Positions 6,115 to 39,170 of a stretch of DNA of 64,000 bases are shown here, piece after piece. Below the pieces are notes generated by a model, which was given only the letters and a program-made list of their open reading frames with translations, did not search any database and had not been told where the DNA came from. Position 1 is the stretch's first letter; each line of letters opens with the position of its first letter. The position numbers were made by a program, and so were the translations under genes. Source of the DNA: an uncultured Candidatus Saccharibacteria bacterium (lineage in GTDB: Bacteria > Patescibacteriota > WWE3 > 2-01-FULL-39-13); assembly GCA_965230915.1 (NCBI GenBank), contig OZ246395.1:12019-76018 (forward strand), in the 5' to 3' direction.

Positions 6115-7359
6115 ATGGATACTTTAAATCAATCTGCCCCAACTCCCAATAATTCTGCCGATAATCAAATTCCAAATAATAATGCACAAAATTCTGAATT
6201 TGCAGAAAAGGGCCCACTATTAAACTCGCGAATGAAGCGAAATATATTAATAGGATGTGGAATAGTTGCCGTATTAATAGCTGCTTTATTTGTAGGAGTT
6301 TTTGCTTACCAGCAAATGAATAAACCTCCTGCAATGATGCCACTTCCACCTGAACCTGTAGTTGAAAACCCTGAACCGGTACGCAGTGATACTCCACGTT
6401 TTGCGTATATTAAAAATGAAAAAAATATTTGGATTAGCAATATAAATGGGGAAGAAAAATTCAGCATTTTGGAACTTCCACTTACGAGTAAAAGTCGAGT
6501 CGTGTCACTAAGCTGGAAAGATAAAGATAATTTAAGCTATGTAACTTGCGATACAAGTACTAGCGTATGCGAAATTTCTACTTATAATTTTGAAACAAAA
6601 TCTATAAAACCTGAAGTTACTTCTACTGGCTCAACCCTTACAAAATTCGCATGGAGCAAAGATGGAAAATATCTAGCATACATAGAAAACCGTGGAAAAA
6701 ATACAAACCTACGCCTAAAACTTGGAACAATCGATAATATCCTAAAAACTTATGTGACCGATACAGAAGATGCGTCTCTTAGCAAATCAGTCGTAGATTT
6801 TAATGACGACAGCCAATATATTTTATATTCTTCTCCTGAACTTATTGTAAACGAGAATAAATCAACCACCCAAACTCAATCGGTCTATATTTATCAACTA
6901 AACGGCGCTCAAATCGATGAAATAAAGAATGTTGATTATCCGTTTTTCATTGATAACGACACAGTCGCATACAAATCAAACAATCGTCTGGTTTATAAAG
7001 ACGTAGGCACAACAGACGAATCAGCAATAACCGATTTTGCCGGATACAACCCAGCGCTTTCTCCGAACGATAATCAAATTGCATATTGGCGCGACGAGGT
7101 TGGCTTTAACAATGTTGTTTTAGGTGTTTATGAATCAGATAAAAATATCCACAGAAATATTTTGAGAGGAGTTATCTTGCCAGTTTGGGTTTCCCCAGAC
7201 AAAATTGTCGGAATAAAGGCCGACAGCTGTATTGGCGAACGATGTCTTTTATATGAATTTCAGACAACCAGTATGGTGATCGTCGATGTTAATAACGGAG
7301 AAGTTTTATCAGTAGACCAAGGAAAATCACTTACAGGAGTTGCCTTTTATGCCGATTAA
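6115..7359 (+). CDS. membrane-anchored protein with N/Q-rich N-terminus and TolB/PD40-like beta-propeller repeats
   Basis: Single TM (ILIGCGIVAVLIAALFVGVFAY); repeated ...DGKYLAY..., ...NDNQIAYWRDE... blades; overlaps the next gene by 20 nt (translational coupling). Confidence 0.5.
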   Translation: MDTLNQSAPTPNNSADNQIPNNNAQNSEFAEKGPLLNSRMKRNILIGCGIVAVLIAALFVGVFAYQQMNKPPAMMPLPPEPVVENPEPVRSDTPRFAYIKNEKNIWISNINGEEKFSILELPLTSKSRVVSLSWKDKDNLSYVTCDTSTSVCEISTYNFETKSIKPEVTSTGSTLTKFAWSKDGKYLAYIENRGKNTNLRLKLGTIDNILKTYVTDTEDASLSKSVVDFNDDSQYILYSSPELIVNENKSTTQTQSVYIYQLNGAQIDEIKNVDYPFFIDNDTVAYKSNNRLVYKDVGTTDESAITDFAGYNPALSPNDNQIAYWRDEVGFNNVVLGVYESDKNIHRNILRGVILPVWVSPDKIVGIKADSCIGERCLLYEFQTTSMVIVDVNNGEVLSVDQGKSLTGVAFYAD

Positions 7360-9217
7360 AGACGAATCACAAACAGCAGGTCGCCAGCATCCAATTCCGC
7401 AAAATGTTATGGATGTTGAATTTAAAGTTGTTGGAGATATTACCCTTCGCCAACTAATGTACCTTTTTGCTGGCGCAATTCTTGCCTATATTGTTTATAA
7501 ATCTGGCGCACCAGCATTCTGGAGGTATTTAATAGTATTCTTAACAGTCACAGGAACAATTGCAATTGCGTTTGTTCCATATGAGGAACGGGGACTAGAT
7601 AAATGGTTCATGAGTTTCATACGAGCCATGACTGCCCCCACTCAAATGGTGTGGCGAAAAACTTATTCTCCTCCCGCATATTTTTTATCTGATTATGCAA
7701 ACATTATTAAGAATGAAATTATCACTTTAACACCAGCAAAAAGTCGCAATAAATTAGATGATTATTTGGGTCAACTATCAGAATCTCAAAATGACCTAGA
7801 TAGAATTGAGGCCGCACGTTTGCAAAGTATTCGAATGGGATTTTCGACACAAGCCGGTGTTAGCGTTGTTACACAACAAGCCGCACCAAGCAGTTTTTCG
7901 CCTTCCTTAGGAGGAGGACCTACAACGGATGTAATTTTTGCCGATGAGCCAACAGCCCCAGGCCGAAGCATGTCTGACACACATGACGGAAATGCTCCGC
8001 ATGCTGAAATACAGCCGGTTCATGAAAAGGCCCCTGAACCACCAGAACAAACAAAACCTACGACAACTGAAAGTCCAAAGCCACAGCCAACACAACCAAA
8101 ACCTGAGACGAAACCAGAGCAAAATCAGGAAAACTTTGGGTCACAAAAATTGCAGCAGGCTCCAAAAAATGTTGAACAAAAGCCAATTACATCTACGCAA
8201 GCTCAACAACCAAAACCGCAGACGAAGCCGGTATCACCTGAACAAAAAGAAGCGTTAAAGGCTATCAAAGAAGATGAAGCTTCATCTAAAAAAGAATTAT
8301 TAGACTCAATCGAATTTAAAAAACCGACGTTGGGAGCACCAGCAGTTGATCGTGCAATAATAAATATTCCGTCGAATCCTAAAGGTGAAATCAAAATTAA
8401 TTTAACAACAAAATTGCCAAAAGTAATTGTGGTTCAAGATTTAAAAGAAATTCAGACAAAAGAATCGTCGCTAGAAAAAAGAGTCGGAGAACTTTTAGAA
8501 GTAGCAACTCAAGTAAGATCTGAAATGCAAGCGGCGGCTGACAAAGAAGCTCATAGAAATAAAAACCAAGGTCGTATCGAATTCTTTAATACAAAATATC
8601 AAGAACTTGAAAAAGAACGCGCAAAAATCACAACACAGCTTGATGAAAGTACAAGTCAGGTTCAACAAATTGGACAATCTGCAGATTCTGACCTAACTAA
8701 ACAGGTTCACGATCTATCGATTAAAAATGAAGAGCTAAAAGCTCAGCTTGCTCAAATTCAAGAAGAAATTAATATTTTAAGAGCAACACCTCAACAAACT
8801 GCTAAACCTGCTGAACCAGTGAAAGCTGCGGCTCAACAACCAAAAAAGCCTGAACCCACACCGGCTCCACCAAGAAATTCTGACCAAGCACAATCGTTAA
8901 ACCAGGTAACCCAATCAGATTACAAACCGGAAGATCCGAATAAAAAGGCTGTAGTTGACGCAAATTTAATCACAGGCACAGTGAAAAATAAAAAGGGCGA
9001 GCTAATTGATAACGCAGTCGTTATAATAAAAGATAAAGACGGTGATGCCATACGTGCTTTAAAGACAAATCAGTTGGGGCAGTTTAAAACACAGACTCCA
9101 ATGCAAAATGGCAAATACACAGTCGAAACAATTAAGGGAGGAATGAAGTTTGATATAATCTCGGTTGAAGCAAAAGGTCAACCAATTAGTCCACTTTCTA
9201 TCATCGCCTTCGAATAA
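7340..9217 (+). CDS. PrgI/VirB3-like membrane protein fused to a Pro/Gln/Lys-rich disordered region, a coiled coil and a C-terminal carboxypeptidase-regulatory-like beta-sandwich domain
   Basis: N-terminus GDITLRQLMYLFAGAILAYIVY plus a second TM helix matches the PrgI (VirB3) family signature; residues about 190-330 are low complexity (PEPPEQTKPTTTESPKPQPTQPKPETKPEQ); 370-470 heptad-rich; the last 100 aa (GTVKNKKGELIDNAVVIIKDKDGD...GKYTVE) resemble a CarboxypepD_reg fold. Confidence 0.55.
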   Translation: MPFMPIKDESQTAGRQHPIPQNVMDVEFKVVGDITLRQLMYLFAGAILAYIVYKSGAPAFWRYLIVFLTVTGTIAIAFVPYEERGLDKWFMSFIRAMTAPTQMVWRKTYSPPAYFLSDYANIIKNEIITLTPAKSRNKLDDYLGQLSESQNDLDRIEAARLQSIRMGFSTQAGVSVVTQQAAPSSFSPSLGGGPTTDVIFADEPTAPGRSMSDTHDGNAPHAEIQPVHEKAPEPPEQTKPTTTESPKPQPTQPKPETKPEQNQENFGSQKLQQAPKNVEQKPITSTQAQQPKPQTKPVSPEQKEALKAIKEDEASSKKELLDSIEFKKPTLGAPAVDRAIINIPSNPKGEIKINLTTKLPKVIVVQDLKEIQTKESSLEKRVGELLEVATQVRSEMQAAADKEAHRNKNQGRIEFFNTKYQELEKERAKITTQLDESTSQVQQIGQSADSDLTKQVHDLSIKNEELKAQLAQIQEEINILRATPQQTAKPAEPVKAAAQQPKKPEPTPAPPRNSDQAQSLNQVTQSDYKPEDPNKKAVVDANLITGTVKNKKGELIDNAVVIIKDKDGDAIRALKTNQLGQFKTQTPMQNGKYTVETIKGGMKFDIISVEAKGQPISPLSIIAFE

Positions 9218-9221
9218 TATT

Positions 9222-9920
9222 ATGGCCAAAAAATATTTAGCAACAACTCAAGAACATTTAGACATCTACGATATTAAAAATGGAATTGTTGTTTTAAAAA
9301 ACGGAAGTGCAGTTTGTATTTTGGAAACTAACGCAATTAACTTCGACCTTTTATCTATGATGGAGCAAGACGCAGCAATTTCTGCATACAGTAATCTTTT
9401 AAATTCATTAACTTTCCCTATTCAGGTTACTATTCGTTCTAAAAAAATGGATATCAGCGATTATTTAGAAAAAGTTAAAGAAGCCGAAAATAAACAGAGT
9501 AATCCCAAAATTAAAGAACAAATAGTTGCTTACAGAAAATTTATTCAAGAAGAACTTGTTACCAAAGAAGAAGTTTTGGATAAAAATTTTTATGTGACGA
9601 TTCCATATAAATTAACAAGCGTAGCAGCAAGTGATCCATTTGGATTCATTACAGATCTAGTCGGATTTCAAGCTAAACAACCAACCCGTGTAAATACAGA
9701 TAAAGTTTTAGAAGAAGCACGCGCAGATTTAGAACCAAAGAAAAACTTTTTGATAAAAGAATTTGCAAGAATTGGTATAAAAGCAACCGCTTTAAATACG
9801 GCAGATTTGATCAAGCTATTCTATGAAATATATAACAGTGAAACATCCCAGTCACAGAGAATTCGAGGAAATGTTGATGATTTTACGTCAGCTTTAGTTG
9901 AACCAAAGTTAAAGATTTAA
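9222..9920 (+). CDS. VirB4-family N-terminal-domain-like protein (separate ORF, same frame as the downstream ATPase)
   Basis: MAKKYLATTQEHLDIYDIKNGIVVLKNGSAVCILE..NFDLLS..EQDAAISAYSNLLNSLTFPIQV resembles the extreme N-terminus of TrsE/VirB4 proteins; the ORF-track start at 9165 overlaps the upstream gene, so the ATG at 9222 is preferred. Confidence 0.45.
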   Translation: MAKKYLATTQEHLDIYDIKNGIVVLKNGSAVCILETNAINFDLLSMMEQDAAISAYSNLLNSLTFPIQVTIRSKKMDISDYLEKVKEAENKQSNPKIKEQIVAYRKFIQEELVTKEEVLDKNFYVTIPYKLTSVAASDPFGFITDLVGFQAKQPTRVNTDKVLEEARADLEPKKNFLIKEFARIGIKATALNTADLIKLFYEIYNSETSQSQRIRGNVDDFTSALVEPKLKI

Positions 9921-9926
9921 AATAAT

Positions 9927-12335
9927 ATGGGACTATTTGGAAAATCAAAACCTAAAGAAGATACTTCAGAAACACTATCTCCAATGACTACAGTGAACAC
10001 TGGAGGGGCATCATCCGAAAGTTCTGTCTCAGCTTTTAGCGGAGTTTCAGAGCCTAAAACAAAATCTGTAAGAGCAGCAAAACCACAAAAACAAAAAGAT
10101 GAAACACCTGAACAAAAATTAGCACGAGGAATTCCATCGGTTCGAGATGTTATTGCTCCAAGTGCAATCGAAGTCGACTATAACTTTTTAAAAGTCGGAG
10201 ACAAATACTTTAGAACACTTTTTATTTCTGGATATCCACGTTTTGTCGGAGCAAACTGGCTTGAACCGATTATTAACTTTGACCACACTTTAACAATTTC
10301 GATGTTTTATTATCCGATAAACGCACGAAACGTTTTGGATGACTTGCGCCGAAAAATTGCAGAAATGGAAGCAACCATTAATATCGCACGTGAAAAAGGT
10401 AAAGTTATCGATCCCGGAGTTCAAGCGGCTTTAGAAGATGCAAAATCTTTACAGGAACAATTGGTAAAAGGTATTGAAAGATTTTTCCATTTTTCTTTTT
10501 ATGTAACTGTTTCGGCAAACACATTGGACGAATTAAATAACATTACATATCAAGTTGAATCTACTTTAGGATCTCTTTCTTTGATTTCGAAAAAAGCTAC
10601 ATTAGAAATGGAAGCCGCATTCCAGACAACAGTTCCTGTTTGTTTAGATAAATTAAAAATTATTCGTAACATGGACACCACTTCTGTTGCGACGACTTTT
10701 CCGTTTACTTCAAGCGAACTTACTTCAAACGAAGGTATTTTATATGGAGTTAACAAACACAACGGTTCATTAATTATTTTTGACCGTTTCTCTTTAGAAA
10801 ATGCGAACTCAGTAATCTTTGCAAAATCTGGTGCTGGTAAATCTTATTTGGTGAAACTCGAAGCTTTACGTTCACTTTTATTTGGAGTTGACCTGATCGT
10901 TATTGACCCCGAAACTGAATATCGAAAACTTTCTGACGCAGTTGGAGGAGAATACATCGACTTTAGTATTAACAGCTCTGCAAAAATTAATCCGTTTGAT
11001 TTGCCTGTTGTTCCTGAAGTTGAAGACCAACTTAGCATGAAGATATTAAGTTTGCACGCTTTATTCAGAATCATGTTGGGAGAACTATCAAGTTCAGAAT
11101 CGGCAGTTTTAGACCGCGCCTTAATCGACACTTACAGACTAAAAGGAATCACTCAAGACCCTAATACACAGCAAGATCGTGAACCTCCATTAATGGAAGA
11201 CCTGTATAAAGTTTTACTTGCGATGGACGAACCCGAGTCAAAATCTCTTGCCGAAAGAATGGAACGTTACATTAAAGGTTCGTTAGCAGGAGTTTTCGAC
11301 CAACGTTCAAATGTTTCTTTAGAAAATTCTTTTACAGTATTTTCTATTAGAAACTTACAAGATGTTTTGCGTCCAATCGCAATGTTCATGATTTTGGACT
11401 TTATTTGGACAAAAGTTAAACACGATTTAAAGAAACGTATATTGCTGTTAGACGAGGCTTGGACTTTGATGCAATATCCAGATTCAGCTGCATTCGTTTA
11501 TTCATTAGCAAAACGTGCAAGAAAATATTACTTGGGACTTACAACAATTACACAAGACGTTAACGACTTCTTAAATACAGATTATGGAAAAGCGGTTGTG
11601 ACCAACTCGTCTATACAAATTCTGTTAAAGCAGCACCCTGCAGCAATCGACAAAATTTCTGAAATTTTCTATTTGTCTCAAGGAGAAAGAAACTTTTTAT
11701 TGGCCGCCGGAATTGGAGAAGGATTATTCTTCGCCGGAACAAATCACGTTGCAATGCAAGTTAAAGCGTCACCACTTGAGCACCAACTGGTTACAACTAA
11801 TCCGAAAGAAGTTAAAGCTGAGCAAGACGAACAAAAGCAAAATAATGCGCCAGTTACACCGAGTATTCCACAAAGAAACGAGCAAGATTTTGAAAGATTA
11901 AAACAGAGATTCGAAACGGTGGATATTAATCAACCAAGAACACAACCTGCACCACAAGGTATGCCTCAGGCACAACCAATACAGCAACCTGGACAAACAC
12001 AAACGCAACAAATGCCAAATCCTTACCAGCAAACAAATCAGGGATATACACAAGCTCCGCAAGTTCAGATGCCGCAAACTAATGCACCTGCGCCAAGTGC
12101 GCCGCAACAAGGTGGACAAATGCCAAACCCATTTGAAAGACAATCTTTTAATGGATATCAAATGCCTGCGAATAATAATACGAACGGGGCACAACAAAAT
12201 AATTGGGCTCCGCAAAATCAACAGCAGCCAAATGCACAGCCACAAAACGGACAACCTAGCCAATCACCTAATCAGGGAACTATTCCGATTAATATGAATG
12301 GTGCTACTCCAACTCCGACTCCGCCTGGGTTTTAA
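9927..12335 (+). CDS. type IV secretion ATPase VirB4/TrsE/PrgJ family, with a long Q/P/N-rich C-terminal tail
   Basis: Walker A AKSGAGKS, Walker B ILLLDEAW, VirB4 N-domain motif (DYNFLKVGDKYFRTLFISGYPRFV); the C-terminal 190 aa are low-complexity (QQPGQTQTQQMPNPYQQTNQGY...). Confidence 0.85.
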   Translation: MGLFGKSKPKEDTSETLSPMTTVNTGGASSESSVSAFSGVSEPKTKSVRAAKPQKQKDETPEQKLARGIPSVRDVIAPSAIEVDYNFLKVGDKYFRTLFISGYPRFVGANWLEPIINFDHTLTISMFYYPINARNVLDDLRRKIAEMEATINIAREKGKVIDPGVQAALEDAKSLQEQLVKGIERFFHFSFYVTVSANTLDELNNITYQVESTLGSLSLISKKATLEMEAAFQTTVPVCLDKLKIIRNMDTTSVATTFPFTSSELTSNEGILYGVNKHNGSLIIFDRFSLENANSVIFAKSGAGKSYLVKLEALRSLLFGVDLIVIDPETEYRKLSDAVGGEYIDFSINSSAKINPFDLPVVPEVEDQLSMKILSLHALFRIMLGELSSSESAVLDRALIDTYRLKGITQDPNTQQDREPPLMEDLYKVLLAMDEPESKSLAERMERYIKGSLAGVFDQRSNVSLENSFTVFSIRNLQDVLRPIAMFMILDFIWTKVKHDLKKRILLLDEAWTLMQYPDSAAFVYSLAKRARKYYLGLTTITQDVNDFLNTDYGKAVVTNSSIQILLKQHPAAIDKISEIFYLSQGERNFLLAAGIGEGLFFAGTNHVAMQVKASPLEHQLVTTNPKEVKAEQDEQKQNNAPVTPSIPQRNEQDFERLKQRFETVDINQPRTQPAPQGMPQAQPIQQPGQTQTQQMPNPYQQTNQGYTQAPQVQMPQTNAPAPSAPQQGGQMPNPFERQSFNGYQMPANNNTNGAQQNNWAPQNQQQPNAQPQNGQPSQSPNQGTIPINMNGATPTPTPPGF

Positions 12336-12936: not shown

Positions 12937-14046
12937 TTACCAGTTAGCTTTCATGGGCATGGCGAGAAAAAAGTAATTGTCTTGGTCTTTAATATTAAAC
13001 AAACCAGGCTTAAGAGGATCAGAAGCCTTAAAAATAATTTCGGCTTCATCGATATTACTTAAAAAGTCTAATAAATATTTTGCGTTAAAAGTTATTTCGA
13101 TATTGTCACCATCTAGCTCACCGTTAATTTTGCTTTGGTTGCTTCCGGTTTCTGACGGTTGAGATTTTGCCTCAATTACATCTTCATTTGCAGAAATTTT
13201 TACGCTGTTTCCGATGTCTCGTGAAAAAATGCTGGCTAACTTTATTGCATTCAAAAGTTCTGTTTTTGAAACGTGAATTTCCGATGTAAATTCTTTTGGC
13301 AAAACTGCTTCGTAATCAGGATATTGTCCTTCGATCATCCTAAGTTGAGCTTCTGAATCTTCTGCGCGAACAACGACTGCATTTTTATCTGTGTTAATTA
13401 TTATTTCTAAACTTTCAGATTTTGGTGCAAAACTTTTTACAATATCGGTAAATGCTTTTGCAGGAATAACACATCGAACTTCGCTAGAAACTTCAGATTC
13501 TAATGCTAATTTATATTCGGCCATTCGATATCCGTCGGTACACGCAATGACTAAAGTCTTGCCTTCTGCTTTTAGAAATACTCCAGTTAAAACAGGTCGT
13601 GATTCATCTGCAGCAGATGCAAATTGAACTTGTGAAATTGCCTTAACAAGTTCTGAAGATTTAATAATTAATTTATCTCCATCTTCTGGTAATTCTAAAT
13701 TTGGAAATTCACTTGCAGGAATTGTTGTTAAATTTGCTTTTGCTTTATCAGTTGTAACTCTTAAGTTTGATCCGTCTAAAGTTAATTCAATTTTCTCATC
13801 GCTTAATTGATTAACAAAATCAATTAATATTTTTGCTGGAACAGTTATTTCGCCAGGCTGATCTACTTTTGCACCAACCCATGATGAAATTGTAATTTGT
13901 AAATCTGATGAAGTAATTTTTACACGACCTTTGTCGGTACGAATTAATAAGTTTGATAAAACGGGAAGTGGACTTCGATTATTTACCGCACGACTAACGA
14001 GTGCCAAACCTTTCTGAAAATTTTCTTGTAATACAGTGAATTGCAT
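12937..14046 (-). CDS. dnaN: DNA polymerase III beta sliding clamp
   Basis: MQFTVLQENFQKGLALVSRAV..PVLSNLLI; 369 aa with three-domain clamp organisation. Confidence 0.9.
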   Translation of the reverse strand: MQFTVLQENFQKGLALVSRAVNNRSPLPVLSNLLIRTDKGRVKITSSDLQITISSWVGAKVDQPGEITVPAKILIDFVNQLSDEKIELTLDGSNLRVTTDKAKANLTTIPASEFPNLELPEDGDKLIIKSSELVKAISQVQFASAADESRPVLTGVFLKAEGKTLVIACTDGYRMAEYKLALESEVSSEVRCVIPAKAFTDIVKSFAPKSESLEIIINTDKNAVVVRAEDSEAQLRMIEGQYPDYEAVLPKEFTSEIHVSKTELLNAIKLASIFSRDIGNSVKISANEDVIEAKSQPSETGSNQSKINGELDGDNIEITFNAKYLLDFLSNIDEAEIIFKASDPLKPGLFNIKDQDNYFFLAMPMKANW

Positions 14047-14096
14047 ATTCTGTTAACTATTTGTAACAGAAAGAGTAGTAAAACGGCAAGCGGGAA

Positions 14097-14582
14097 TTAT
14101 TCGGAAATTTCTTGGTTATCAGGAATAATGATGACTCTACGGTTGTATCCTTCGCCTTCTGATGAAGATGTAACTCCTTCGAGTTCTCCAACTTTATCAT
14201 GGACAATTTTTCTTTCGTAAGAATTCATTGGATACAATGCAACTGATTTCATTAATGATTTTGCTTTTTCAGCAGCATTTTCTGCAAGTTCTGTTAATTT
14301 TCTTTCGCGTTCTAATCTGTAACCAGAAACATCAACTAAAACTCCAACACCTTCTCCGACTTCTTTAAAGAGCATTACATTTAATAGGTGCTGTAACGCA
14401 TTTAAAGTCTCTCCATGGTATCCAATTATTAAATTTGTATCTTGAGTATCTATCTCAACATAAAATCGTTCATTAGTTGTATTTCTTTCTTGTGGAAATT
14501 TAATTTCAGCTTGAACTTCTAATTGAGCGAAAATAGTTTCTAATGTTTCTTTAATTTTTTGTTCAATTTGATTTCTGTCCAT
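14097..14582 (-). CDS. khpB: RNA-binding protein Jag/KhpB (KH plus R3H domains)
   Basis: Conserved position downstream of yidC; the C-terminal R3H-like ...GEGYNRRVIIIPD. Confidence 0.78.
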   Translation of the reverse strand: MDRNQIEQKIKETLETIFAQLEVQAEIKFPQERNTTNERFYVEIDTQDTNLIIGYHGETLNALQHLLNVMLFKEVGEGVGVLVDVSGYRLERERKLTELAENAAEKAKSLMKSVALYPMNSYERKIVHDKVGELEGVTSSSEGEGYNRRVIIIPDNQEISE

Positions 14583-15351
14583 TTGTTAATTCCTTACTAG
14601 CTTTTGGGCGGGATAGATAAGCATACTGTCCAACAGCTATTATGGTCGAAATAAACCAATAAAGCGGAAGACCGGCCGGCAAATTAAATCCAAATACGAC
14701 TGTCATAATTGGCAGCATATAGGTCATTTGCTCCTGCATATTATACATAACATCATCAGACTTGTCAGGTGTATTCTCCGCTATTTTCTCCATTTTCTTA
14801 GTACTTTGCATTGTATATTTGGACATAAAAAATTGAGCAATACCAGCTAATACAGGTAAAACAAACCATGGGTCCGGTTTTGCTAAGTCCCAAAGTAAGA
14901 ATTTAGTATGTAATTGAGCTCCATCTGCAAACTTTAAAAAGTCGAGTGGATACAATAAATGGTTAATATCAGAGATCATTACCCCGCTTCCTTGCAAGAC
15001 ATTCGTGAAGACTCTATATAAAGCAATAACAATAATAATTTGGATAATCTGAGGTAAGCAACCAGCAGCCGGATTAATTCCATGTTCTTTAAATAGCTCC
15101 ATCTGCTTTTGGGCAAATTCTTCACGCTTTGGATATCTCTTTTTTAATTCGTCTATTTGTGGCTGAAGCTCTTTCTGTTTCTTAGACATCTCGAGCATCG
15201 GCTTAGAAAGCGGGTAAGTGACGACTTTAATAAGTACGGTAAGCGCAATAATGGCCAAACCTAGGTTTTCCCACATAAAGTGGTACAAAATTATGAGCCC
15301 ATTTAAAATTGGGATATAAAACAGGGTATTCCAGATATCAGTTAAAAACAT
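14563..15351 (-). CDS. yidC: membrane protein insertase YidC (short form)
   Basis: Polytopic, conserved YidC/Oxa1 core motifs, in the rnpA-yidD-yidC-jag context. Confidence 0.88.
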   Translation of the reverse strand: MFLTDIWNTLFYIPILNGLIILYHFMWENLGLAIIALTVLIKVVTYPLSKPMLEMSKKQKELQPQIDELKKRYPKREEFAQKQMELFKEHGINPAAGCLPQIIQIIIVIALYRVFTNVLQGSGVMISDINHLLYPLDFLKFADGAQLHTKFLLWDLAKPDPWFVLPVLAGIAQFFMSKYTMQSTKKMEKIAENTPDKSDDVMYNMQEQMTYMLPIMTVVFGFNLPAGLPLYWFISTIIAVGQYAYLSRPKASKELTNGQKSN

Positions 15352-15353
15352 GC

Positions 15354-15608
15354 TTAGGTAACGGGATCATATCCGCCTTTTGTAAAAGGGTTACATCGAA
15401 GTATTCTCCAAAGACCTAAAAATCCGCCTTTAAAAATGCCGTATTTATCGATGGCCTGGTATGTATATTCTGAACAATAAGGTTCAAAACGACAGACACG
15501 AACGCCCAAATGGCTAAAGGTGTGACTTTGGTCTAGAGAAATCCACTTTTGATAAAAACGAATTGATCTCAGAATTAATTTCTTCAACACTGACGACGAT
15601 TTTACCAT
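15354..15608 (-). CDS. yidD: membrane protein insertion efficiency factor YidD
   Basis: RFYQKWIS...C.FEPYCSEY signature. Confidence 0.85.
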
Positions 15609-15888
15609 TTTTGTCGAAAAATGTTTTTTTAGGGATAAAAATGAAACTGTATCTTTCCGGGAATTTCTCTAAATTGCCTTTTACTGATCTTGAAATTATT
15701 CGGCGAATTTTATTCTGCTCGACTGCCTTTTTAGTAAGACGATTTGAAGTAATAACAGCAAATTGAGGCGCCACCGCCCTATCTTCTCTATACTTAACTA
15801 TTAAATGGGGAGAGACAAACTCGGTTAAAGACTTTAAAACTCGGGTGAAATTATATCTGGTTTTGAGGCTGAATTTTCGGCTATACAC
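15514..15888 (-). CDS. rnpA: RNase P protein component
   Basis: Basic protein with RLTKK..F..V.R motif; overlaps yidD by about 95 nt in another frame. Confidence 0.78.
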
Positions 15889-15911
15889 AGCTAAATTCTA
15901 CAATAAAACGC

Positions 15912-16070
15912 TTATTTAGATACGCGTCCTCTATTAATAGCGAGTCTTACACGGCCTTTAAGTCTGCGTCTTTTAAGGACATTTCTGCCTGCTTTAGTTC
16001 GCATTCTTTTTAAGAATCCATGTTTTCTGTTTCCTTTCTTTACTTTTGGTTGCCAGGTTCTTTTCGGCAT
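15912..16070 (-). CDS. rpmH: 50S ribosomal protein L34
   Basis: [40 protein letters not shown]; the track ORF (to 16205) is a 5' extension, and the internal ATG at 16068-16070 gives the canonical length. Confidence 0.85.
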
Positions 16071-16127
16071 AGCAAGGCAAATTGTAACATAAGAGGGCAA
16101 TCCACACCATATATTAAGAGCCTGGAT

Positions 16128-16158
16128 TTGTGGATAATTTCGGGTTGACTGTGGATAA
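16128..16158. promoter_or_regulatory. two perfect DnaA boxes (TTATCCACA, reverse orientation) at the dnaA 5' end
   Basis: tgtggataa at 16128-16136 and 16150-16158; they lie upstream of the preferred dnaA ATG at 16181. Confidence 0.55.
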
Positions 16159-16180
16159 ACCTCCTTATACACTGCCAGAT

Positions 16181-17578
16181 ATGGATCAGCTGAAACTAGA
16201 TACAATTTGGAAATCTATAAAAGGAGAATTAGAAGTAGTATCTAATCCTGTTCATTTTAAGGCGAATATCCCCGGTACATATATCAGCAAAATCGACGAA
16301 GAAAATAAAATTATTGAAATTTCAGCTCCCAGCGAATATAAAAAAAACTTTATAGAAGACCGCTTTTACGGCTACTTAAAAGAAATTATTGAAAAAGATC
16401 TAGGCCGAGGATACCGACTAATGTTTACGGTTACCAAGGTTGAAAAAAATGAAACTCCACAAGATCTTGGGCCACTTTTTGACCAAGAGGAAGAGACCAA
16501 AACAGATGAGGCAGATTTTAATAAAAGACTGACAGATGCAGGACTTAGTAATAGATATACAATTGGCCGCTTTATAGTAGGATCGCACAACAAACTTGCC
16601 TATGCAGTATCTACAGCAATAATCGATAATCCAGGCAGAGTTTATAACCCATTCTTTTTATATTCTGGAGTAGGTTTAGGAAAAACCCACTTGGTTCAAG
16701 CCATTGGCTACGAAATTTTACGAAAGCATCCGGACAAAGTCGTCGTTTATAAAACCGGTGAACAATTTTTAAATGAAGTAGTTGAAGCCGTTAGGCGAGG
16801 AGGCGCAGCCAACCAAGATTTTAAGAGAAATGACCTAAAGAAGAAATATCGAAATGCAGATGTCCTCATAATCGACGATATACATGCTATCGCTGGAAAA
16901 ACTTCCACTCAGGAAGAATTTTTTAATACATTTAATACTTTGTACATGGCACAAAAGCAAATTATTTTGACTAGTGACCGAGCTCCACATGAAATAAAAA
17001 CTTTAGAGGAACGATTATCTTCAAGATTTGCCAGCGGAATTATTGCAGATATTCAAAAGCCCGATTTTGAAACAAGAGCAGCAATTTTGAAAGAAAAAAA
17101 TGAGGAACTGAATTTACAGGCTCCAGATCACGTTATCGATTATGTTGCAAATTCCGTAACGACAAGTATTCGGGAACTAGAATCGGCTTTATTACAAACG
17201 GTCACTCACGCCAGAACATTCGGACAAGACCTAACAAAAGAAACTACCACTAATATAATGAACGATATTAATCGGGAAAAACAAAGGCGGGTTACTCCGA
17301 ATACAATAATTAGGGAAACCAGTAAATATTATGGCATTACGGTTAAAGATATTAAAGGTCAGCGCCGGTTAAAAAATCTAGTAATGCCAAGACAGGTTTG
17401 CATGTATCTTCTTCGTGATATGGGAGGTTTAGGGTTCCAATCTATTGGCGAACTTTTAGGTAATCGAGATCACTCAACGGTTGTACATGGAGTTAATAAA
17501 ACTTCTGAATTAATAAAAGAGCCTACCTTTAGTAAAGAGATTGAACAAATTAAAACTAATATATTAGTTGATGCTTAA
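16181..17578 (+). CDS. dnaA: chromosomal replication initiator DnaA
   Basis: AAA+ Walker [10 protein letters not shown], a box VII region, and a C-terminal HTH (domain IV); the track start GTG at 16130 would put the DnaA boxes inside the ORF, so the ATG at 16181 ([12 protein letters not shown]...) is more typical. Confidence 0.93.
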
Positions 17579-23710: not shown

Positions 23711-26545
23711 TTAAAGAGGAAATTTGAGTTCTTTATCGGTGTCAAACAAGAGGTTGGTGTTCGACTCAGTTTTACCCTCTAGTTTGATGCTAAGAGGAGA
23801 AACCTCTGATCCTGGCTGTTTTTGAAGGGTTATGTCCATATAGTTGTCTTTATAGACTTTTTGAGGGGATCCATATTCGATTCGCAAAACCACGTTCTCT
23901 TTCGTAGGGATATAAAGATCGGTTTCGTACATAACCTTGGTGCCATATTTAGAGACTTTTATTGATCTGGCGATGTTCTTTTCTCCAGTTTCGGCAATAA
24001 TGGTGGCTGTATTTATGAGGGTGTCTCCTGGGGCGATCATTATTATGTGGTCTAAATAGTCAGAATCGCCATTGTTTGTGTACTTAATCTCTATTGTCCT
24101 TATATAGCCGTCATTTTCGGTTGGCAGGACTCCCTCGTAGGTTATTTCTGATGTGATCTTTTCGCTTGGGATATCGGTAAGGTTGTTGTTACCAAAGAAT
24201 AAGAAATCATCGCTATCTGAGCCTTTTAAGGTACCTCCCCAATTGTTTTCTATGATACTGCTATAGACACTTTCATCAGTATGATAAATCATCATATCTC
24301 GAGAATTTAGGGCAGAATAAATCATTGGTTCTAGGGTTTGGAACGAATCAGGATTACTTCTAAAGGTGTCAAAAATATATGAGAAAACGTCTTTTATAAC
24401 GTCAGCCTTTTGGTTTTTGGTTAAGGAACTCGTAAAGTTTTGTTCATTAATTACTTTGTCATTCACTCTTATTTCGCCAAGTGTTTTTATGAAGGTTTTT
24501 AATAAGTTTGTATCTACTGCTATTACTCCATTAATTTTTTCTTTTCCTAGATACGAATAGAGATTTATTGCGGTTTCGGAAGCATTTCTAAAGTCTGGAT
24601 CCCAGGTTACATCTTCCATTCGAAGAAAATCCTGGCTTGTTAAAGCTTGAATTGGCTCTGGAGCTGGAATTTGACCATTTAAGTCTATTTGCTGATGGGC
24701 GTCAGAAGATTTTTCTAACTTTTCGATTGAGAATTTACCGTTTTCAGCTTTTAAAAGCCCGTAAACTTCAACCTGGCCTCCAGACGATCTGGCTATATTT
24801 AGGTTTTGAACTAAAAGCAAATAAATCTGTGGGTTTTTGTATCCTAATAAATCGCCCAGTGCCGGCTCGATAGCGCGAATTTTTTCTAACTTATCTTTAT
24901 TTTTATTTAATGAATTTAAACTTTCGTTTATTAGTCCGCGAATATACGAATTTCTGGTTTCGAGTGTTTCGAAATTATTCTCTATCTTTTCAATTTTTTC
25001 TAAAGATTTATCGATATATTCCGGAGACGCAACGGTACTTGCACCTAAAACATCTGAATCTGAATTTAGCGCGATTTCATGTGAGTCTAAGTTTTTGAAT
25101 GTTGCGTAAAGGTCGACTCCCGATAGGTAATTTATTGCAAGCGAAATTTCTTTTGCGGTTTCTATTGCTAAATGTTGATCTTTATCAGAAATTCCAATTC
25201 GTTCCGCAATAAAGCCAACAGGTGCCGGAATGGTTTCTAGTTTATTAAAGTATGTGCTGGCTTTTTCACTATTGTTATATGCAGATGTTAAGTCGGTTGT
25301 TTGGATATTATTTGAAGCTTTTTTAAGATAAATAACTCCTGCACTAGCGTTATACGCGAACATCAAAGATGGAAGGCTTAGTGCAACTATTAGGCAAGCA
25401 ACTAAAGCCACAATTGCTTTTCGAGGCTTTTTACTTGAGGCTTTTTTAGATTTGACCGATTTAGTTTGTCCGACTTTAACTTCCGGAATTACCTCAACAT
25501 AATCATAATCATTGTCGGAGTCTTCGAGTTCTTTTTCTTCGATAACATCTTCTGATTGCCGGTTTTCTTCATCGTTAAATTCATAGTCGTTATAGTCTTG
25601 GTCTAAATCTCTTTTTCTAGATTCCGGATCGAATGGGTCGTAAGGTTCGGTTGGTTCTTCGTAATCACGATCAAAAGATTTGTATGAAAGCGGTGAGGTG
25701 TCTGTAAATGAATCATCTTTTGCTAGTTCTAAGCTTTCGTCATTTAATTCATCTTCTGCACCATCGACCATCGGGATTCCATTGTAGTCACACAAATCTT
25801 CTATACCTGCTTTAAGCTCAACTTCAGGCCACCAGTTTTCGGGATAATTTATTTCTGCATCTGGCAGTGGAGTCGACAGGTTTTCTTCATGCGTATAACT
25901 TATTTCCAAATCAAAATCTGTGAGTTCTTTTATAAAGTGAGCAAGCTCAATTTCCGTGATTGGATCTTCAGGGTAAAGTGTATAGTGTTTTGATTTTGAA
26001 GATGGATCATTAAGGGTTTTTATAATTTGTTTGAGTCCGCTTTTAAAATCTTTTTGGTGTAAAAGATAGTGTTCGTTTTCATCAGAGTCGACAGTTAAAA
26101 TGTTTGAACCGGAAGTAACCGATGTTATAAATTCTTCTAATTTTTGATCTGTGTTGATTTCGGGACCGTAAATATCTTCGATATGAACAGTTGCAAATTT
26201 GACTCCAACTTTAGTGCAGTAAGATTTAATTAAATCGATCGCTGTAACAATTGTGCTTTCTGGATGGGTTTCTTCCCTTTCGCGGTATACAAAAATATAT
26301 GGAGAATTAACTTTTTTTGCTAAATCAATTAATTCTTTAATTTCAATTGTGTTATGAATTAAATCACTAGATTCATCAAGTAAATTTTCCGCATTGCTTA
26401 CATCTAAAACGGCATGAATATCTTTAGGGTCATCTAATGAATTAATTTTTTGTGTAATGTCGATTGTTAAGAGTCCAGATTCACCAAAAGCAGTGTGTAA
26501 ATAGGTGCTTATTTTATTGTTGCCGTATATTAAGATTGTGTTCAT
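23711..26545 (-). CDS. large bitopic membrane protein: degenerate N-terminal Rossmann/epimerase-like cytoplasmic domain, acidic linker, one TM, and an extracytoplasmic domain of about 550 aa
   Basis: MNTILIYGNNKIS... Rossmann-like without an intact GxxGxxG; acidic D/E/Y-rich segment; TM AIVALVACLIVALSLPSLMFAY; large hydrophilic C-terminal region. Confidence 0.45.
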   Translation of the reverse strand: MNTILIYGNNKISTYLHTAFGESGLLTIDITQKINSLDDPKDIHAVLDVSNAENLLDESSDLIHNTIEIKELIDLAKKVNSPYIFVYREREETHPESTIVTAIDLIKSYCTKVGVKFATVHIEDIYGPEINTDQKLEEFITSVTSGSNILTVDSDENEHYLLHQKDFKSGLKQIIKTLNDPSSKSKHYTLYPEDPITEIELAHFIKELTDFDLEISYTHEENLSTPLPDAEINYPENWWPEVELKAGIEDLCDYNGIPMVDGAEDELNDESLELAKDDSFTDTSPLSYKSFDRDYEEPTEPYDPFDPESRKRDLDQDYNDYEFNDEENRQSEDVIEEKELEDSDNDYDYVEVIPEVKVGQTKSVKSKKASSKKPRKAIVALVACLIVALSLPSLMFAYNASAGVIYLKKASNNIQTTDLTSAYNNSEKASTYFNKLETIPAPVGFIAERIGISDKDQHLAIETAKEISLAINYLSGVDLYATFKNLDSHEIALNSDSDVLGASTVASPEYIDKSLEKIEKIENNFETLETRNSYIRGLINESLNSLNKNKDKLEKIRAIEPALGDLLGYKNPQIYLLLVQNLNIARSSGGQVEVYGLLKAENGKFSIEKLEKSSDAHQQIDLNGQIPAPEPIQALTSQDFLRMEDVTWDPDFRNASETAINLYSYLGKEKINGVIAVDTNLLKTFIKTLGEIRVNDKVINEQNFTSSLTKNQKADVIKDVFSYIFDTFRSNPDSFQTLEPMIYSALNSRDMMIYHTDESVYSSIIENNWGGTLKGSDSDDFLFFGNNNLTDIPSEKITSEITYEGVLPTENDGYIRTIEIKYTNNGDSDYLDHIIMIAPGDTLINTATIIAETGEKNIARSIKVSKYGTKVMYETDLYIPTKENVVLRIEYGSPQKVYKDNYMDITLQKQPGSEVSPLSIKLEGKTESNTNLLFDTDKELKFPL

Positions 26546-27642: not shown

Positions 27643-28386
27643 ATGGAATCTGCTGCCATAAAAAACGATTTAATAAAAACCCTTAAGCTAATTAAGGCTG
27701 AAGAAATTCCGGTTTTAACCGAAGAAATTACAAGCTATTTTATTGCTTCAGATAAATCATCACAGCTTAATAAACCTTCGGTTCTAACTGCTTTAAATGA
27801 GTTACAACAAGAGAGAAAAGTTTTTTCCGAAGATGAATTTATAAGTTTTTCTGAAAGCTTTAAAGATAAAATAAAAGACAGGTTAGATTTAGAAGAGTCG
27901 ACGAGGGAAAAGTCTAAATATACAAAAAATCTATTTAAATTTTTAGAAAATTTACCATTTGTAAAATTTGTTGCGGCAAGCGGAAGTTCACCTTTTGGCC
28001 GAATTGCTAAAAACGAAAAAATAAAATTAATAGTAGTTGCAGATAAAGAAACCAGGCATTTATCAGAATTCTGTATAAAAAAATATTTACAGCTCAATCG
28101 GGCTTATAAAAACTTTGAAGTCGAAAAAGTTTTTGAAAGCGATAATCTTAAGTGGCATCGACCAGACGCTGAAAGCGCAATAAAACTTTTAAATATGATT
28201 GTGGTTATAAGTAAAAATAAAACCTACGAGAATTTTATGGCAACTAATAATTGGATCTTTGATATTTTTTCTAATTATCCACTAGAAAAAGTAAGCTGGG
28301 GATTCAGGGTTACAAAAAATATTGATATCAAAACTGCACCAATTTTTAAAACTTTAAACAAATTTTTGACGCCAAAAGCATTATAA
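27643..28386 (+). CDS. hypothetical cytoplasmic protein
   Basis: No recognisable motifs; convergent with the giant secreted-protein gene. Confidence 0.35.
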   Translation: MESAAIKNDLIKTLKLIKAEEIPVLTEEITSYFIASDKSSQLNKPSVLTALNELQQERKVFSEDEFISFSESFKDKIKDRLDLEESTREKSKYTKNLFKFLENLPFVKFVAASGSSPFGRIAKNEKIKLIVVADKETRHLSEFCIKKYLQLNRAYKNFEVEKVFESDNLKWHRPDAESAIKLLNMIVVISKNKTYENFMATNNWIFDIFSNYPLEKVSWGFRVTKNIDIKTAPIFKTLNKFLTPKAL

Positions 28387-31300
28387 ATCGTATTTCTCTC
28401 TGTAAGTTTTTTGCAGGTTTTCGACTTCTTCTTTAAATCCTTTTGGCATTTGGTCTATAGGTGTTTCCATCGTAAAGTTTCCTTTAGCAGAATATCTATT
28501 TAGGATTTCTTCGAGATCTGCTGCTATTTCTGCCTGAATAACTTCAGGATCAACTTTTGTCTTAACAGGGGTCATTACGGTTTGGGCGACCATTTGTGTC
28601 GGAGATTTTTCTTTTGTAATTGGTGCTGTGCCTTCGTTATCGCAAGTAGACGAAAGTTGTCCGCCTGTACAATATTGGCGTAATCCCATTTGGAATAATC
28701 CGTAGTCGCAATAACCGATATTTGCTCCCCATCGGCCTTCGGTGAATTCATCAGGTCGGCAGGATCCGTAATATCCTCTTAAAGCTCGCTTAACTGCATC
28801 GAAGTTAGATTCACTAATTGTTCCGTTTCTGTAGTCGACTCCAGCTTTTTGTTTTAGTACACGAGCAGCCAATGTTGGCGCGACTTGAGGATTGCATCGT
28901 CCATCTTTTCGATATTCGCTTTGTGGTGTTCCCGCTGCCCATCTTTGAATGTTCCAATTCTTTTGTTCTGTAGGGTCTGTTATATCGAAGACTGTGTCGT
29001 CAGTAATTTGGAACGGACCAGTTGCAGTTACGCTATTTCGTGAACATGAATTTAAGCTGCCGCCTCCTTCTATATCTAATATAACGGCGATAAGTCTTGC
29101 AGGAACGCCTGAATCTAATCCTACATTTTCGATTTGTTTTAATGTATCTCCACTAATATTGTTGCTACCCGGTGCAGAACTAAAGAAGTTTCCGCCGCCA
29201 CGGAGTGATGATAAGAATGGTTCGCACAACCCAATTGCCCGTGTAGGAAAGTCTGATGGAAGGCTTCCCGCTGCTTCGCTTAAACAATATTGTGCGGCCT
29301 GACTAAAGTGGTCGGTGTATTCGATGTACATACTTCTGGTATCGCTGCCGCTAATACTTAAATCAAGACAATCTTGCGGTCCACCAAGCCCAAATCTTGC
29401 CAACGCATTTGATAACGGGTTACTTCCGCAATTAGGTGTGGTATTGTTTCCACTCGCGTTAGATCCTGAAATACCTCCAAGTGAAAGTTTAAGTTCGAGC
29501 TCGTGTTTGCTAGGCTTTGGATCAAAATAAGAGTCGCTGACTCCCGGTACCTTATATAAACCCTGAAAAACCTGGAAGTCATAATTGCTTCTATTTTGGT
29601 TTAATTTACCCATAAAACGGCTTGGGACATATCCATATAAAAGATATTGGCGTTCACCAAATGTGCATGACCATTTTTCGTCTCCTTCATGATAGACCCC
29701 ATTTATATCTGTATAGCCTTCTTCTTCATCTTTTTCACAGTGATAGTTAAATAATTTGGCACCAGCTGCATAAAGACTTTTTATAAAGTCTGAAAATATA
29801 TTTCCTACAGAAATTGAAATATCCTCTTTATCTTCTATGTCCTTTGCTAATCTGAAAGTTTGATTTCCGGTTTGGCAGAATCCTTTTTCGCAATTTGGAT
29901 CATCTGTGACTTCTAATAAATCTTCGGCATCCATAGTTGCGCATTCTCCACCAGGAGCCCAAGTTTCACATTTTGTACAGTCGATTGGTGGAGGTGGTCT
30001 GTCGTCGACAATCCCACAAGCTCCTTCATTTGGACAGGTACATACTGGTCTTTGTGTACAGTTAGGATTGTCCGAATATGGAGCGCTACTATTTGTAATT
30101 TGGAAATGAACTTTAAGTTCCATTTTGTTTTCAGCAAGCTCACGTGGAGTTACAGGAATTGAACATCCTGGTAAAGTTTCAATCGGGACTCCATATTTTT
30201 CGCCATCATTACCGTTAGGGTTGTAAATTGGAAGACCAGCTGACTTATGTAGGTTCCCTCCATTTGGATTTCCACATGTACTGATTTGTGTTGATTGGCC
30301 GGTTGTTTTGTCGGTTACCCAATATTCAATATAGTAGCCCCAGTCGACAGGTTGAGGACACTCGGGTTGACCGTTCCATACTTTTACTGAAAACTGATTT
30401 TCTGCAGTTTTGTTTTCGATTAATATGTGAGCGCCTTGGCAATATGGCTGAGCTTCTTCATATGGAGGAGCTGCTTGAGCCTGTGCCTGTTTTGGATTTA
30501 CCGGATTTATATTATCGAGCGAATAAGAAGTTCCAATCTCTTCATCAGAATCTGTTGGGGTTTTTAGAACAACATCCGCAATATAACTTTGTGTATTTTT
30601 ATTTTGATCAGCATTTTGTTTTGCTAAAAGTTGTTGCTCTTGAGCATAATAGTCTTCTAATGATGTTGCTAATATAGTGCTTCTTCCGATTGGAACTGTG
30701 TCGCCGGGTTTTTTTACAACTGCAGCACTAAAATCCCATAGAACTTTGTCCATCGCCTGACGATCGGCTGGTTCTAAAAGTTTAATTTTATCTGCTTCAT
30801 TCATTGAAAATTTAATTAGATGTCCCATACCTATACAGGCTTCTGGTGGATCACCCGGACCACATTTTTCACCGCTTTTATCGTTCTTTAAACACTCTTC
30901 ACCTGTAGATGGATCGCAAACAGATGACTGCAAACATCCGATGAACGCCTGATTAAAAGCTAAATTATCAATTGTAGATTTGCGGCCTGGTTTAATTCCA
31001 TCTTGGCTGGGATAAACACGAGCCTGAAATGCTGCATAAGTCTCTGTTGTTCCTTGCTTTTCTGGTTGAGCCTGAATTTCAAGACCTCCTTGATATATAA
31101 ATCCTGGAATATGCGAAGTTATATAAAGAGGCAAAGATCTTGGCGTAATAGTACTGGGTTTATATTGAGCAATAGCCTTATTATTAATAAAGTCATCATT
31201 TGTAGCTGCCAATGAACCGATATATTTTTGCGTCATTGTACTAAAATCGGTGCTCCAATATTTAGTAGGGGCTATAACAATTCTTTCAGTTACAACCGCG

Positions 31301-33251: not shown

Positions 33252-33252
33252 A

Positions 33253-37233: not shown

Positions 37234-37281
37234 GTGTTATATTAATTGATTAAAGTATACATGTATGATTTAATTATTACG

Positions 37282-38649: not shown

Positions 38650-38697
38650 CCTATCCTAACCTAAATAATCTTTTTATAAATATAAAGTTGAAGTAAA

Positions 38698-39093
38698 TTA
38701 GAGTGTATCGTTGACGAAAGTGCTTAGTGCGTCTAACCAGAATTGAACATTTCCCAATCCAAAGAATGCTAAGAAAAGGTTTAGTAAAAATCCACCACCA
38801 CCTATTACAACAAAGGCTAACAGCAGAGTATACGGCCACTGATGTGCCAGTTCTTCTAAAACACTAGAGTTTTCTCGGTTCATTGCAGTTTTGTATATCA
38901 AAAACATTGAGATAATTATTGCGACGGCAACCAATATGATTTGGAATGTGGTCCATGCTTTTGGAACAGCACAATTTATGTAGCTTCCAACGTCGAAGTA
39001 ATATCCTGAATCTGCGGGTAAATTCCACCCGTCTGTACCTGTATATGAGGCGCCAGAATCATTAATATATGAAGTGTTATAACAATCCGCCAT
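38698..39093 (-). CDS. VirB2/TrbC-like two-helix membrane protein (paralog 1) with small Cys-containing N-domain
   Basis: TM1 FQIILVAVAIIISMFLIY, loop KTAMNRENSSVLEELAHQWPY, TM2 TLLLAFVVIGGGGFLLNLFLAFFGL. Confidence 0.4.
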   Translation of the reverse strand: MADCYNTSYINDSGASYTGTDGWNLPADSGYYFDVGSYINCAVPKAWTTFQIILVAVAIIISMFLIYKTAMNRENSSVLEELAHQWPYTLLLAFVVIGGGGFLLNLFLAFFGLGNVQFWLDALSTFVNDTL

Positions 39094-39170
39094 AATTTTC
39101 TCTTATAATTTTAACAGATTGCCATTTAATTACTAATAGATTAAGTGTTAAAATAATAACAACTCATAAT

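Follow-up and report, generated by a model that had tools for sequence, protein, structure and literature searches.

A long-form PrgI/VirB3 protein with a tethered C-terminal beta-sandwich in a type IV secretion locus of a WWE3-like Patescibacterium

We analyzed 64,000 nucleotides (nt) of DNA from an uncultured Candidatus Saccharibacteria bacterium (assembly GCA_965230915.1, contig OZ246395.1, positions 12,019 to 76,018, forward strand; hereafter the window) and describe a gene in it for an unusually long protein of the PrgI/VirB3 family, the membrane hairpin subunit of type IV secretion systems (T4SSs). VirB3 is regarded as a minimal anchor of 10–15 kDa. In the protein studied here, the equivalent module occupies only the first 111 of 622 amino acids (aa) and is followed by about 510 aa that end in a folded beta-sandwich domain, an arrangement shared by a large family of relatives. 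The gene directly precedes those for a TrsD/TraC-like protein and a VirB4 ATPase. Our preferred reading, to which we give a probability of about 0.58, is that the protein is a long form of VirB3/PrgI carrying a cytoplasmic arm, and a subunit of a chromosomal, origin-proximal, monoderm-type (mating-pair-formation FATA-like, MPF-FATA-like) T4SS of an ultra-small, WWE3-like Patescibacterium.

Anatomy of the long PrgI/VirB3 protein

The open reading frame (ORF) extends without interruption from 7340 to 9217 on the forward strand, as an earlier note on this DNA had it, although the start needs correcting. We favor ATG 7349 over TTG 7340 because a GGAG lies upstream, the homologues all open with MPIK, and a database entry of identical sequence (P0001) has 622 aa; the gene call in locus L001 likewise gives 622 aa. 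A full-length AlphaFold2 (AF2) monomer model, built with 35 homologues, divides the product into five parts: the PrgI/VirB3 module, a first disordered linker, heptad helices, a second disordered linker and the beta-sandwich. The features of the gene are as follows (all on the + strand; TM, transmembrane; pLDDT, predicted local distance difference test; HMM, hidden Markov model).

7336..7339, +, Shine-Dalgarno-like GGAG, 9 nt before ATG 7349 (direct sequence reading)
7349..9217, +, long-form PrgI/VirB3 gene, 622 aa plus stop (ORF call; identical database protein P0001)
7349..7681, +, canonical PrgI/VirB3 module, aa 1-111 (PF12666; BLASTP to Bacillus PrgI; column conservation 0.54-0.84)
7445..7501, +, TM helix 1, aa 33-51 (hydropathy; AF2 helix 33-51, pLDDT ~95)
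7514..7582, +, TM helix 2, aa 56-78, with a ~10-aa loop before it (hydropathy maximum 1.91; AF2 helix 56-75)
7682..7858, +, conserved helical neck, aa 112-170 (AF2 helices 110-127, 130-142 and 149-169)
7859..8236, +, disordered linker 1, rich in P/Q/T/S/K, aa 171-296 (pLDDT <50 over 168-292)
8237..8419, +, helix aa 297-322, then a conserved linear motif, aa ~323-357 (AF2; column conservation)
8420..8785, +, heptad-periodic region, helices aa 358-395, 401-441 and 447-479 (AF2 pLDDT ~90)
8786..8953, +, disordered linker 2, rich in P/Q/K, aa 480-535 (pLDDT <50 over 483-534; conservation 0.18-0.24)
8954..9214, +, seven-stranded transthyretin/CnaB-like beta-sandwich, aa 536-622, 87 aa (AF2, Foldseek, HMM)

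The module at aa 1-111 consists of an N-terminal tail with the motif HP[VI]PQNVMDVEFKVVGDxTxRQ, a TM hairpin and a WRKxYxP tail. The Pfam family PF12666 (PrgI) matches aa 15-100 with 37.8 bits (E 2.9e-9; curated cut-off 27 bits) over model positions 1-89 of 91, and is precomputed on nearly all homologues. By BLASTP, aa 12-111 align with the entire 116-aa PrgI of Bacillus mycoides plasmid p139 at 31% identity (E 1e-10), and the Bacillus protein ends 5 residues past the common WRKxYxP motif. Hydropathy identifies exactly two segments of TM grade in the whole protein. The earlier note had seen a PrgI-like N-terminus with two TM helices, and here that view gains a profile match above cut-off and an AF2 hairpin at pLDDT ~95; the profile supports PrgI, and the homologues retain the hairpin. 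It had also given about 100-120 aa as the normal size of PrgI/VirB3 proteins, in keeping with the 116-117 aa of canonical forms (PMC12857230). Judged from its sequence, the protein is thus a member of the PrgI/VirB3 family in every testable respect but size, having 622 aa where 10-15 kDa, or ~100-120 aa, would be usual.

Past the module, a helical neck carries the consensus PPAYFLSDYAxIIKNEIITLTPAKSRNKLDEYLG, which is clade-specific and absent in canonical 116-aa PrgI; column conservation across aa 101-140 reaches 0.72-0.85. The first linker contains 22 P, 16 Q, 14 T, 11 S and 10 K among its 126 residues, is poorly conserved (0.08-0.25) and varies greatly in length in the alignment. A short helix then leads into the motif IDRxxxxxP..KGEIxIxTxxKLPxxIVxxDIK (8315-8419), which has a conservation of 0.37-0.55 despite low pLDDT at aa 324-353, and distant relatives carry a related GEIxLP[IV]RGE motif; the stretch at aa 323-357 looks like a linear binding motif. 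In the three helices that follow, the bias of hydrophobic residues toward heptad positions a and d was matched by only 0-33 of 2,000 shuffles, and these ~120 aa probably oligomerize or form a bundle, as judged from a model of the monomer.

Much of this layout had been anticipated. The order of linker, heptad helices and beta-sandwich is confirmed by the AF2 model, and a Pro/Gln/Lys/Thr-rich segment placed at about 7900-8330 agrees with the disorder modeled over aa 168-292. There are two disordered linkers, however, where a single low-complexity segment had been reported, and the extension, taken to be a stalk of 400 aa, measures ~510 aa. Heptads are indeed present around EELKAQLAQIQEEINILR (aa 461-478), but the 'laminin-like' label attached to this segment was rejected, since its profile matches reflect generic coiled-coil likeness only.

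Modeled alone, the C-terminal domain folds into seven strands with pLDDT 93 and a predicted template modeling (pTM) score of 0.81, and in the full-length model aa 541-621 reach pLDDT 95-97. The CarboxypepD_reg family (PF13620) matches aa 541-599 with 28.3 bits, below its cut-off of 32.3, while homologue P0089 scores 33.2 bits and PF13620 is precomputed on most homologues. Foldseek returned probability 1.00 and template modeling scores (TM-scores) of 0.62-0.72 to the structures 4v4c_B, 3mn8, 2nsm, 5aq0 and 8bdw, the top match in the Protein Data Bank (PDB) being 4v4c_B, the beta subunit of pyrogallol transhydroxylase (TM-score 0.72). Further matches include the transthyretin-like (TTL) domains of carboxypeptidases D and N, CnaB2, the SpaA/BcpA pilins, UafA, SdrD and SlaB, and a family profile run against the PDB reached an SdrD B-repeat (E 6e-5). 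That profile search returned coiled-coil noise and SdrD only, with no solved VirB3, and Foldseek with the full-length model recovered the beta-sandwich again and nothing else. The CarboxypepD_reg-like terminal fold proposed in the earlier note is therefore upheld by AF2 and Foldseek, at a length of ~87 rather than about 100 aa. The domain was not found in any other protein of the window or of 80 related reference-genome loci, and a single-sequence database search with it, using a word index, gave one match.

A family with conserved ends and a variable spacer

The architecture is conserved across a family and is not a one-off. An exhaustive search with the N-terminal aa 1-175 against 1.84 billion cluster representatives (50% identity clusters) identified 1,764 clusters with E<=1e-3, of which 1,116 reach E<=1e-10; among the 150 best, the module is always N-terminal and the proteins mostly have 400-900 aa. 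A search with the full protein gave 50 relatives of 357-738 aa, nearly all with PF12666 and PF13620. We collected 180 members, which have a median length of 552 aa, only 7 being shorter than 250 aa. A local HMM places the C-terminal domain in 168 of the 180, always once per protein and with its end ~1 residue short of the C-terminus. Across the 80 reference-genome loci, the N-terminal module and the C-terminal domain lie within a single ORF at 71 of 73; the remaining two are split by a frameshift inside the domain and by a run of Ns, respectively, and the 7 loci without a C-terminal domain are explained by contig ends or a frameshift.

Conservation is concentrated at the two ends of the protein. 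Column identity is 0.54-0.85 over aa 1-140 and 0.59-0.77 over aa 541-620, with hypervariable linkers and a moderately conserved middle between them. The total span is 323 to 717 aa in the genomes and reaches 900 aa in the protein set; the spacer ranges from ~70 to >400 aa. The longest members (890-900 aa) owe their length to the linkers and have no Pfam domains beyond these two, and the shortest consist of the PrgI module, a ~70-aa linker and the sandwich. Because these shortest forms omit the coiled coil, the invariant core can be reduced to the hairpin module, a tether and the terminal sandwich.

Given this breadth, we considered whether the gene might be a fusion produced by mis-assembly or frameshift, or a gene in decay, and regard this as almost certainly wrong: the two split loci among 73 and a stand-alone 97-aa C-terminal domain call (P0051) could be cited for it, but the splits amount to a frameshift within the domain, a run of Ns and a truncated call, while 71 of 73 loci have a single ORF, more than 1,000 clusters have conserved ends, an independent assembly contains the identical protein, and conservation at both termini indicates purifying selection.

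What seems new here is the tethered beta-sandwich on VirB3, the two Pfam domains themselves being already precomputed on such proteins in databases. The earlier note had stated that this architecture is not described for canonical T4SS inner-membrane subunits, and we found the same: the papers that we consulted on PrgI in Patescibacteria count or list homologues without noting the extension, and mention neither their length nor a tethered beta-sandwich.

Membrane topology and the placement of the arm

Because the protein has exactly two TM helices, both of its termini must be on one side of the membrane; 178 of 180 homologues have no further hydrophobic segment, and the other two have marginal ones. 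Across 165 family members, the mean count of lysines plus arginines (K+R) is 3.6 in the N-terminal tail, 1.3 in the inter-TM loop and 4.8 in the tail after TM2, the excess of the tails over the loop is at least 4 in all 165, and the N-terminal tail never falls below the loop. By the positive-inside rule an N-in/C-in hairpin is therefore predicted, with the ~510-aa arm beginning in the cytoplasm. Applied to 15-residue flanks the charge rule is ambiguous, and it is the whole-tail count that is decisive in direction. The two tails are the best-conserved segments and are also present in canonical 116-aa PrgI. In VirB3 of R388, helices alpha2 and alpha3 cross the membrane, and the protein is wrapped around the VirB4 N-terminal domain (PMC9259494), and a 2025 review describes both VirB3 termini as short cytoplasmic extensions, with PrgI modeled 1:1 with PrgJ/VirB4 (PMC12857230). 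By analogy to R388, and given the conservation of the tails, both may contact the VirB4 N-terminal domain here in the same 1:1 manner. TrsD and VirB4, which have no TM segments, need a membrane anchor. Taking sequence features and homology together, we consider the arm to be probably cytoplasmic, at odds of roughly three to two.

Two compositional features were considered as markers of compartment. Disorder rich in Pro and Gln is not evidence of a wall-spanning segment, because a Q/P/N tail of 190 aa is also found on VirB4, the cytoplasmic ATPase encoded in this operon. The extension is also nearly devoid of cysteine (2 in 66,391 residues across the family), but we rejected this scarcity as a marker, since exported proteins of this genome are richer in cysteine than cytoplasmic ones; if anything, it would speak against export.

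With a cytoplasmic arm, the hairpin of aa 1-111 would anchor the soluble TrsD/VirB4 ATPase module at the membrane with its tails facing the cytoplasm, by analogy to VirB3-VirB4 of R388. The clade-specific arm of ~510 aa would extend on the cytoplasmic side through the neck, a tether, the linear motif, the heptad helices and a second tether to the sandwich. If the stoichiometry of R388 applies, with one VirB3 for each central VirB4 and six per machine, six flexible arms would surround the ATPase. We infer that each would most likely serve as a tethered protein-protein docking module that recruits substrates or adaptors, or scaffolds assembly, at the base of the machine. A flexible tether fits the data better than a calibrated stalk because both linkers are modeled with pLDDT <50, the spacer ranges from ~70 to >400 aa, and short forms do without the coiled coil. 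We speculate further, although we think it improbable, that the arms form a six-fold cytoplasmic 'fishing-line' receptor that functionally replaces the coupling protein and VirB11 missing from the T4SS of Patescibacteria, a repurposed and essential system, or that the tail runs through the channel as a tethered ruler or plug. In the fishing-line version, substrates or adaptors would be caught by the sandwich and the linear motif, perhaps with help from the Q/P/N tail of VirB4, and passed to the ATPase.

Several points weigh against a cytoplasmic arm. The inter-TM loop, which contains hardly any acidic residues, has the most positive net charge of all segments (+1.35, versus -0.94 for the N-terminal flank), and with K/R in front of it TM2 could conceivably function as a signal anchor. 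The nearest folds of the C-terminal domain are mostly extracytoplasmic stalk or adhesin modules, including CnaB2, the B-repeats of SdrD and UafA, pilins, SlaB and the carboxypeptidase TTL domains. An order of TM segment, Pro-rich linker, coiled coil and globular domain is typical of extracytoplasmic subunits of T4SSs, type II secretion systems and type IV pili. The predicted topology itself derives from homology and charge statistics, and the proposed role in recruitment from the anatomy of the arm.

The same observations favor an extracellular stalk, and the earlier note had proposed one, envisaging an envelope-spanning element with a binding domain displayed on the outside. The hairpin would then be N-out/C-out, or TM1 would be interfacial only, and the exported tail would span the wall with the sandwich on the surface, where its role could be to bind ligands of the host or cell wall or to support a VirB2-like pilus, as VirB10, VirB8, TraM-like subunits and CnaB stalks do. 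Linkers rich in P/T/K/Q and coiled coils are common in wall-spanning proteins of monoderms, and an exported SpoIID protein in the window has a coiled coil. The gene upstream of prgI, apparently translationally coupled to it, encodes an extracytoplasmic propeller, and the scarcity of VirB8-like subunits in Patescibacteria (PMC12102498) leaves a structural gap outside the membrane. Against this, it would require export of a conserved 35-aa N-terminal tail with ~4 K/R in the absence of a signal peptide, and would leave only a 10-aa cytoplasmic loop to hold TrsD/VirB4, contrary to the canonical role of the tails. The K+R counts are N-in/C-in throughout, no third TM helix is seen in 178 of the 180 homologues, and a spacer that varies more than 5-fold around a dispensable coiled coil would be odd for a calibrated envelope spacer. 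In a Pfam scan, motifs for attachment to the wall (sortase, LysM, SLH or others) were absent, and no natural split genes with an export signal on the tail were found in the family, only artefactual splits. The two TM helices, the shared tails, the K+R bias and the variable spacer thus disfavor the stalk, which we hold to be unlikely but the most credible competitor of the cytoplasmic arm.

Alternatively, the tail could begin in the cytoplasm and then enter the T4SS channel, to be threaded or secreted as a tethered plug, a ruler or a first substrate, in the manner of FliK/YscP-type rulers, which combine extended regions of variable length with a globular C-terminal domain. This would reconcile a cytoplasmic origin with an 'extracellular-type' fold, and it draws on the two long disordered segments, the large variation in length between lineages and a locus without coupling protein or relaxase (PMC12102498; window scans). 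A stably folded sandwich (pLDDT 93) and bundled helices would, however, have to unfold, and six arms per machine cannot all fill one channel. Pfam, profile and Foldseek searches detected no homology to known ruler domains, and we regard threading as very unlikely.

The origin-proximal locus and comparison with known systems

The genes flanking prgI are listed below.

6115..7359, +, bitopic PD40/TolB-like propeller protein (PD40 26.7 bits, cut-off 20.9)
9222..9920, +, TrsD/TraC-like gene, 232 aa, 5 nt past the PrgI stop (NCBIfam TrsD and VirB4 N-terminal matches)
9927..12335, +, VirB4 ATPase, 802 aa (NCBIfam conju_CD1110 387.5 bits, cut-off 325; Pfam P-loop_TraG)

The TrsD gene starts at ATG 9222 and not at TTG 9165 of the longest ORF. 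PF26593 (TraC-like) is found on this gene in loci L001-L003, and the protein matches the product of the gene after PrgI on the Bacillus plasmid with E 4e-10. By sequence it is a free-standing counterpart of the VirB4 N-terminal domain. We considered and rejected the idea that the ORFs 9165-9917 and 9927-12335 represent a broken VirB4 gene, since a separate TrsD is the rule both in Patescibacteria and on the Bacillus plasmid. The VirB4 protein has a disordered N-terminus of ~60 aa and a prion-like, Q/P/N-rich C-terminal tail of ~190 aa (~11770-12332); VirB4 in related genomes has 645-648 aa.

The order PrgI-TrsD-VirB4 is kept in 69-73 of the 80 related loci, whose organism labels comprise candidate division WWE3, 'Saccharibacteria' metagenome-assembled genomes, Gottesmanbacteria and unclassified Patescibacteria. 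This order recurs on the Bacillus mycoides plasmid, there with the 116-aa PrgI, and the next genes of the plasmid are homologous too. In the window, virB4 is directly followed by dnaN, a jag/khpB-like gene, yidC and then dnaA on the other strand (12937-17578), which places the operon next to the replication origin; dnaN lies divergently downstream in 47 of the related loci. PrgI, TrsD and VirB4 of Patescibacteria have been catalogued before, in the gene order seen here, and the proximity of T4SS genes to the origin was noted in the same work, which describes the locus as lacking a coupling protein and relaxase and VirB8-like envelope subunits as scarce (PMC12102498). Our scans of the window likewise found no coupling protein, VirB11 or relaxase at the T4SS locus.

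The propeller protein encoded upstream has a cytoplasmic tail, a TM segment at aa 43-65, a Pro-rich linker and 5 Cys. The stop of its gene overlaps the start of prgI by 11 nt, consistent with translational coupling. It occupies this position in 11 of the 80 loci and in the P0012 genomes, closer relatives only, and it is possibly a lineage-specific extracellular accessory of the T4SS.

Elsewhere, the window contains a second T4SS-related cluster at ~33250-43180. A T4SS_pilin domain (PF18895) ends a protein of 365 aa (39171-40268) and is weakly matched in 42821-43180, and small pilin-like ORFs with two TM segments are found at 38698-39093 (-) and 42329-42748. The cluster also encodes a lytic enzyme of the SpoIID type with a coiled coil (40385-42220, -) and a protein of 1,326 aa that carries an M23 peptidase at its C-terminus (33253-37233, -). 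A 1,281-aa protein (28381-32226, -) that Pfam does not match begins with a signal-like segment, contains 37 cysteines (2.9%) and is probably a large, secreted, disulfide-rich surface protein. The only family match of a 944-aa protein (23711-26545, -) is DUF4012, at 80 bits.

Patescibacteria depend on an unusual chromosomal T4SS that is essential for epibiotic growth in the only genetically tractable species. More than 1,000 clusters, from WWE3, Microgenomatia-type and other lineages, with a conserved tethered domain of 200-800 aa on VirB3, represent a new and testable T4SS part. It is a candidate for a receptor or scaffold located at the ATPase; should the predicted topology be mistaken, it would instead span the envelope, in a system seemingly without VirB8 and VirB10. 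Should the receptor, or the ruler or plug, prove true, it would introduce a new principle of substrate selection or gating in type IV secretion. The family also illustrates that HMM-based censuses of T4SSs can miss large lineage-specific additions.

Compared with known systems, the C-terminal domain shares its seven-stranded sandwich (TM-score ~0.6-0.72) and a T[ND]xxGxF turn motif with the CnaB, SdrD-B and carboxypeptidase D TTL domains. Those domains sit in secreted, often LPXTG-anchored tandem stalks, whereas here a single copy ends a two-TM protein. The features of MSCRAMM adhesins (microbial surface components recognizing adhesive matrix molecules) or CnaB stalks are absent: the protein has no signal peptide and ends in ...SIIAFE without an anchor. 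VirB10 and TraM (VirB8-like) look superficially alike, combining an anchor, Pro-rich and coiled-coil segments and a globular C-terminal domain, but they are bitopic, N-in and C-out, with one TM helix; the present protein has two, no TrbI or VirB8 Pfam match, and a transthyretin-like sandwich in place of a TrbI or NTF2-like domain.

TrwM/VirB3 of R388, known from cryo-electron microscopy (PMC9259494), has the role that we propose here, with two TM helices and tails that wrap the VirB4 N-terminal domain. The likeness is drawn through assignment to the PrgI/VirB3 family, there being no direct sequence or Foldseek match, and R388 differs in being a diderm system with VirB7/9/10 and a VirB4 N-terminal domain that is not split off as TrsD. 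VirB3-VirB4 fusions such as those of Campylobacter plasmids, as cited in PMC12102498, set a precedent for a cytoplasmic C-terminal extension of VirB3; in those the addition is an ATPase, whereas here it is a tether and a sandwich, with VirB4 and TrsD encoded by separate genes. Among Patescibacteria, SEML1_0010 of Southlakia epibionticum (Saccharimonadia) is a PrgI-family protein of 300 aa that is essential (PMC10633639). Compared by description, it too lies upstream of TrsD-like and virB4 genes near the origin and is longer than canonical forms, with a helical extension, but it has half the present length and no beta-sandwich in its structure-based annotation. The closest parallel to the N-terminal module is PrgI of pCF10 and other Bacillota plasmids (PF12666), which has a similar N-terminal tail motif, the two-TM hairpin, the WRKxY tail and a gene position before TrsD-like and virB4; to the 116-117 aa of the Bacillota proteins, the protein described here adds ~510 aa of neck, two linkers, heptad helices and sandwich.

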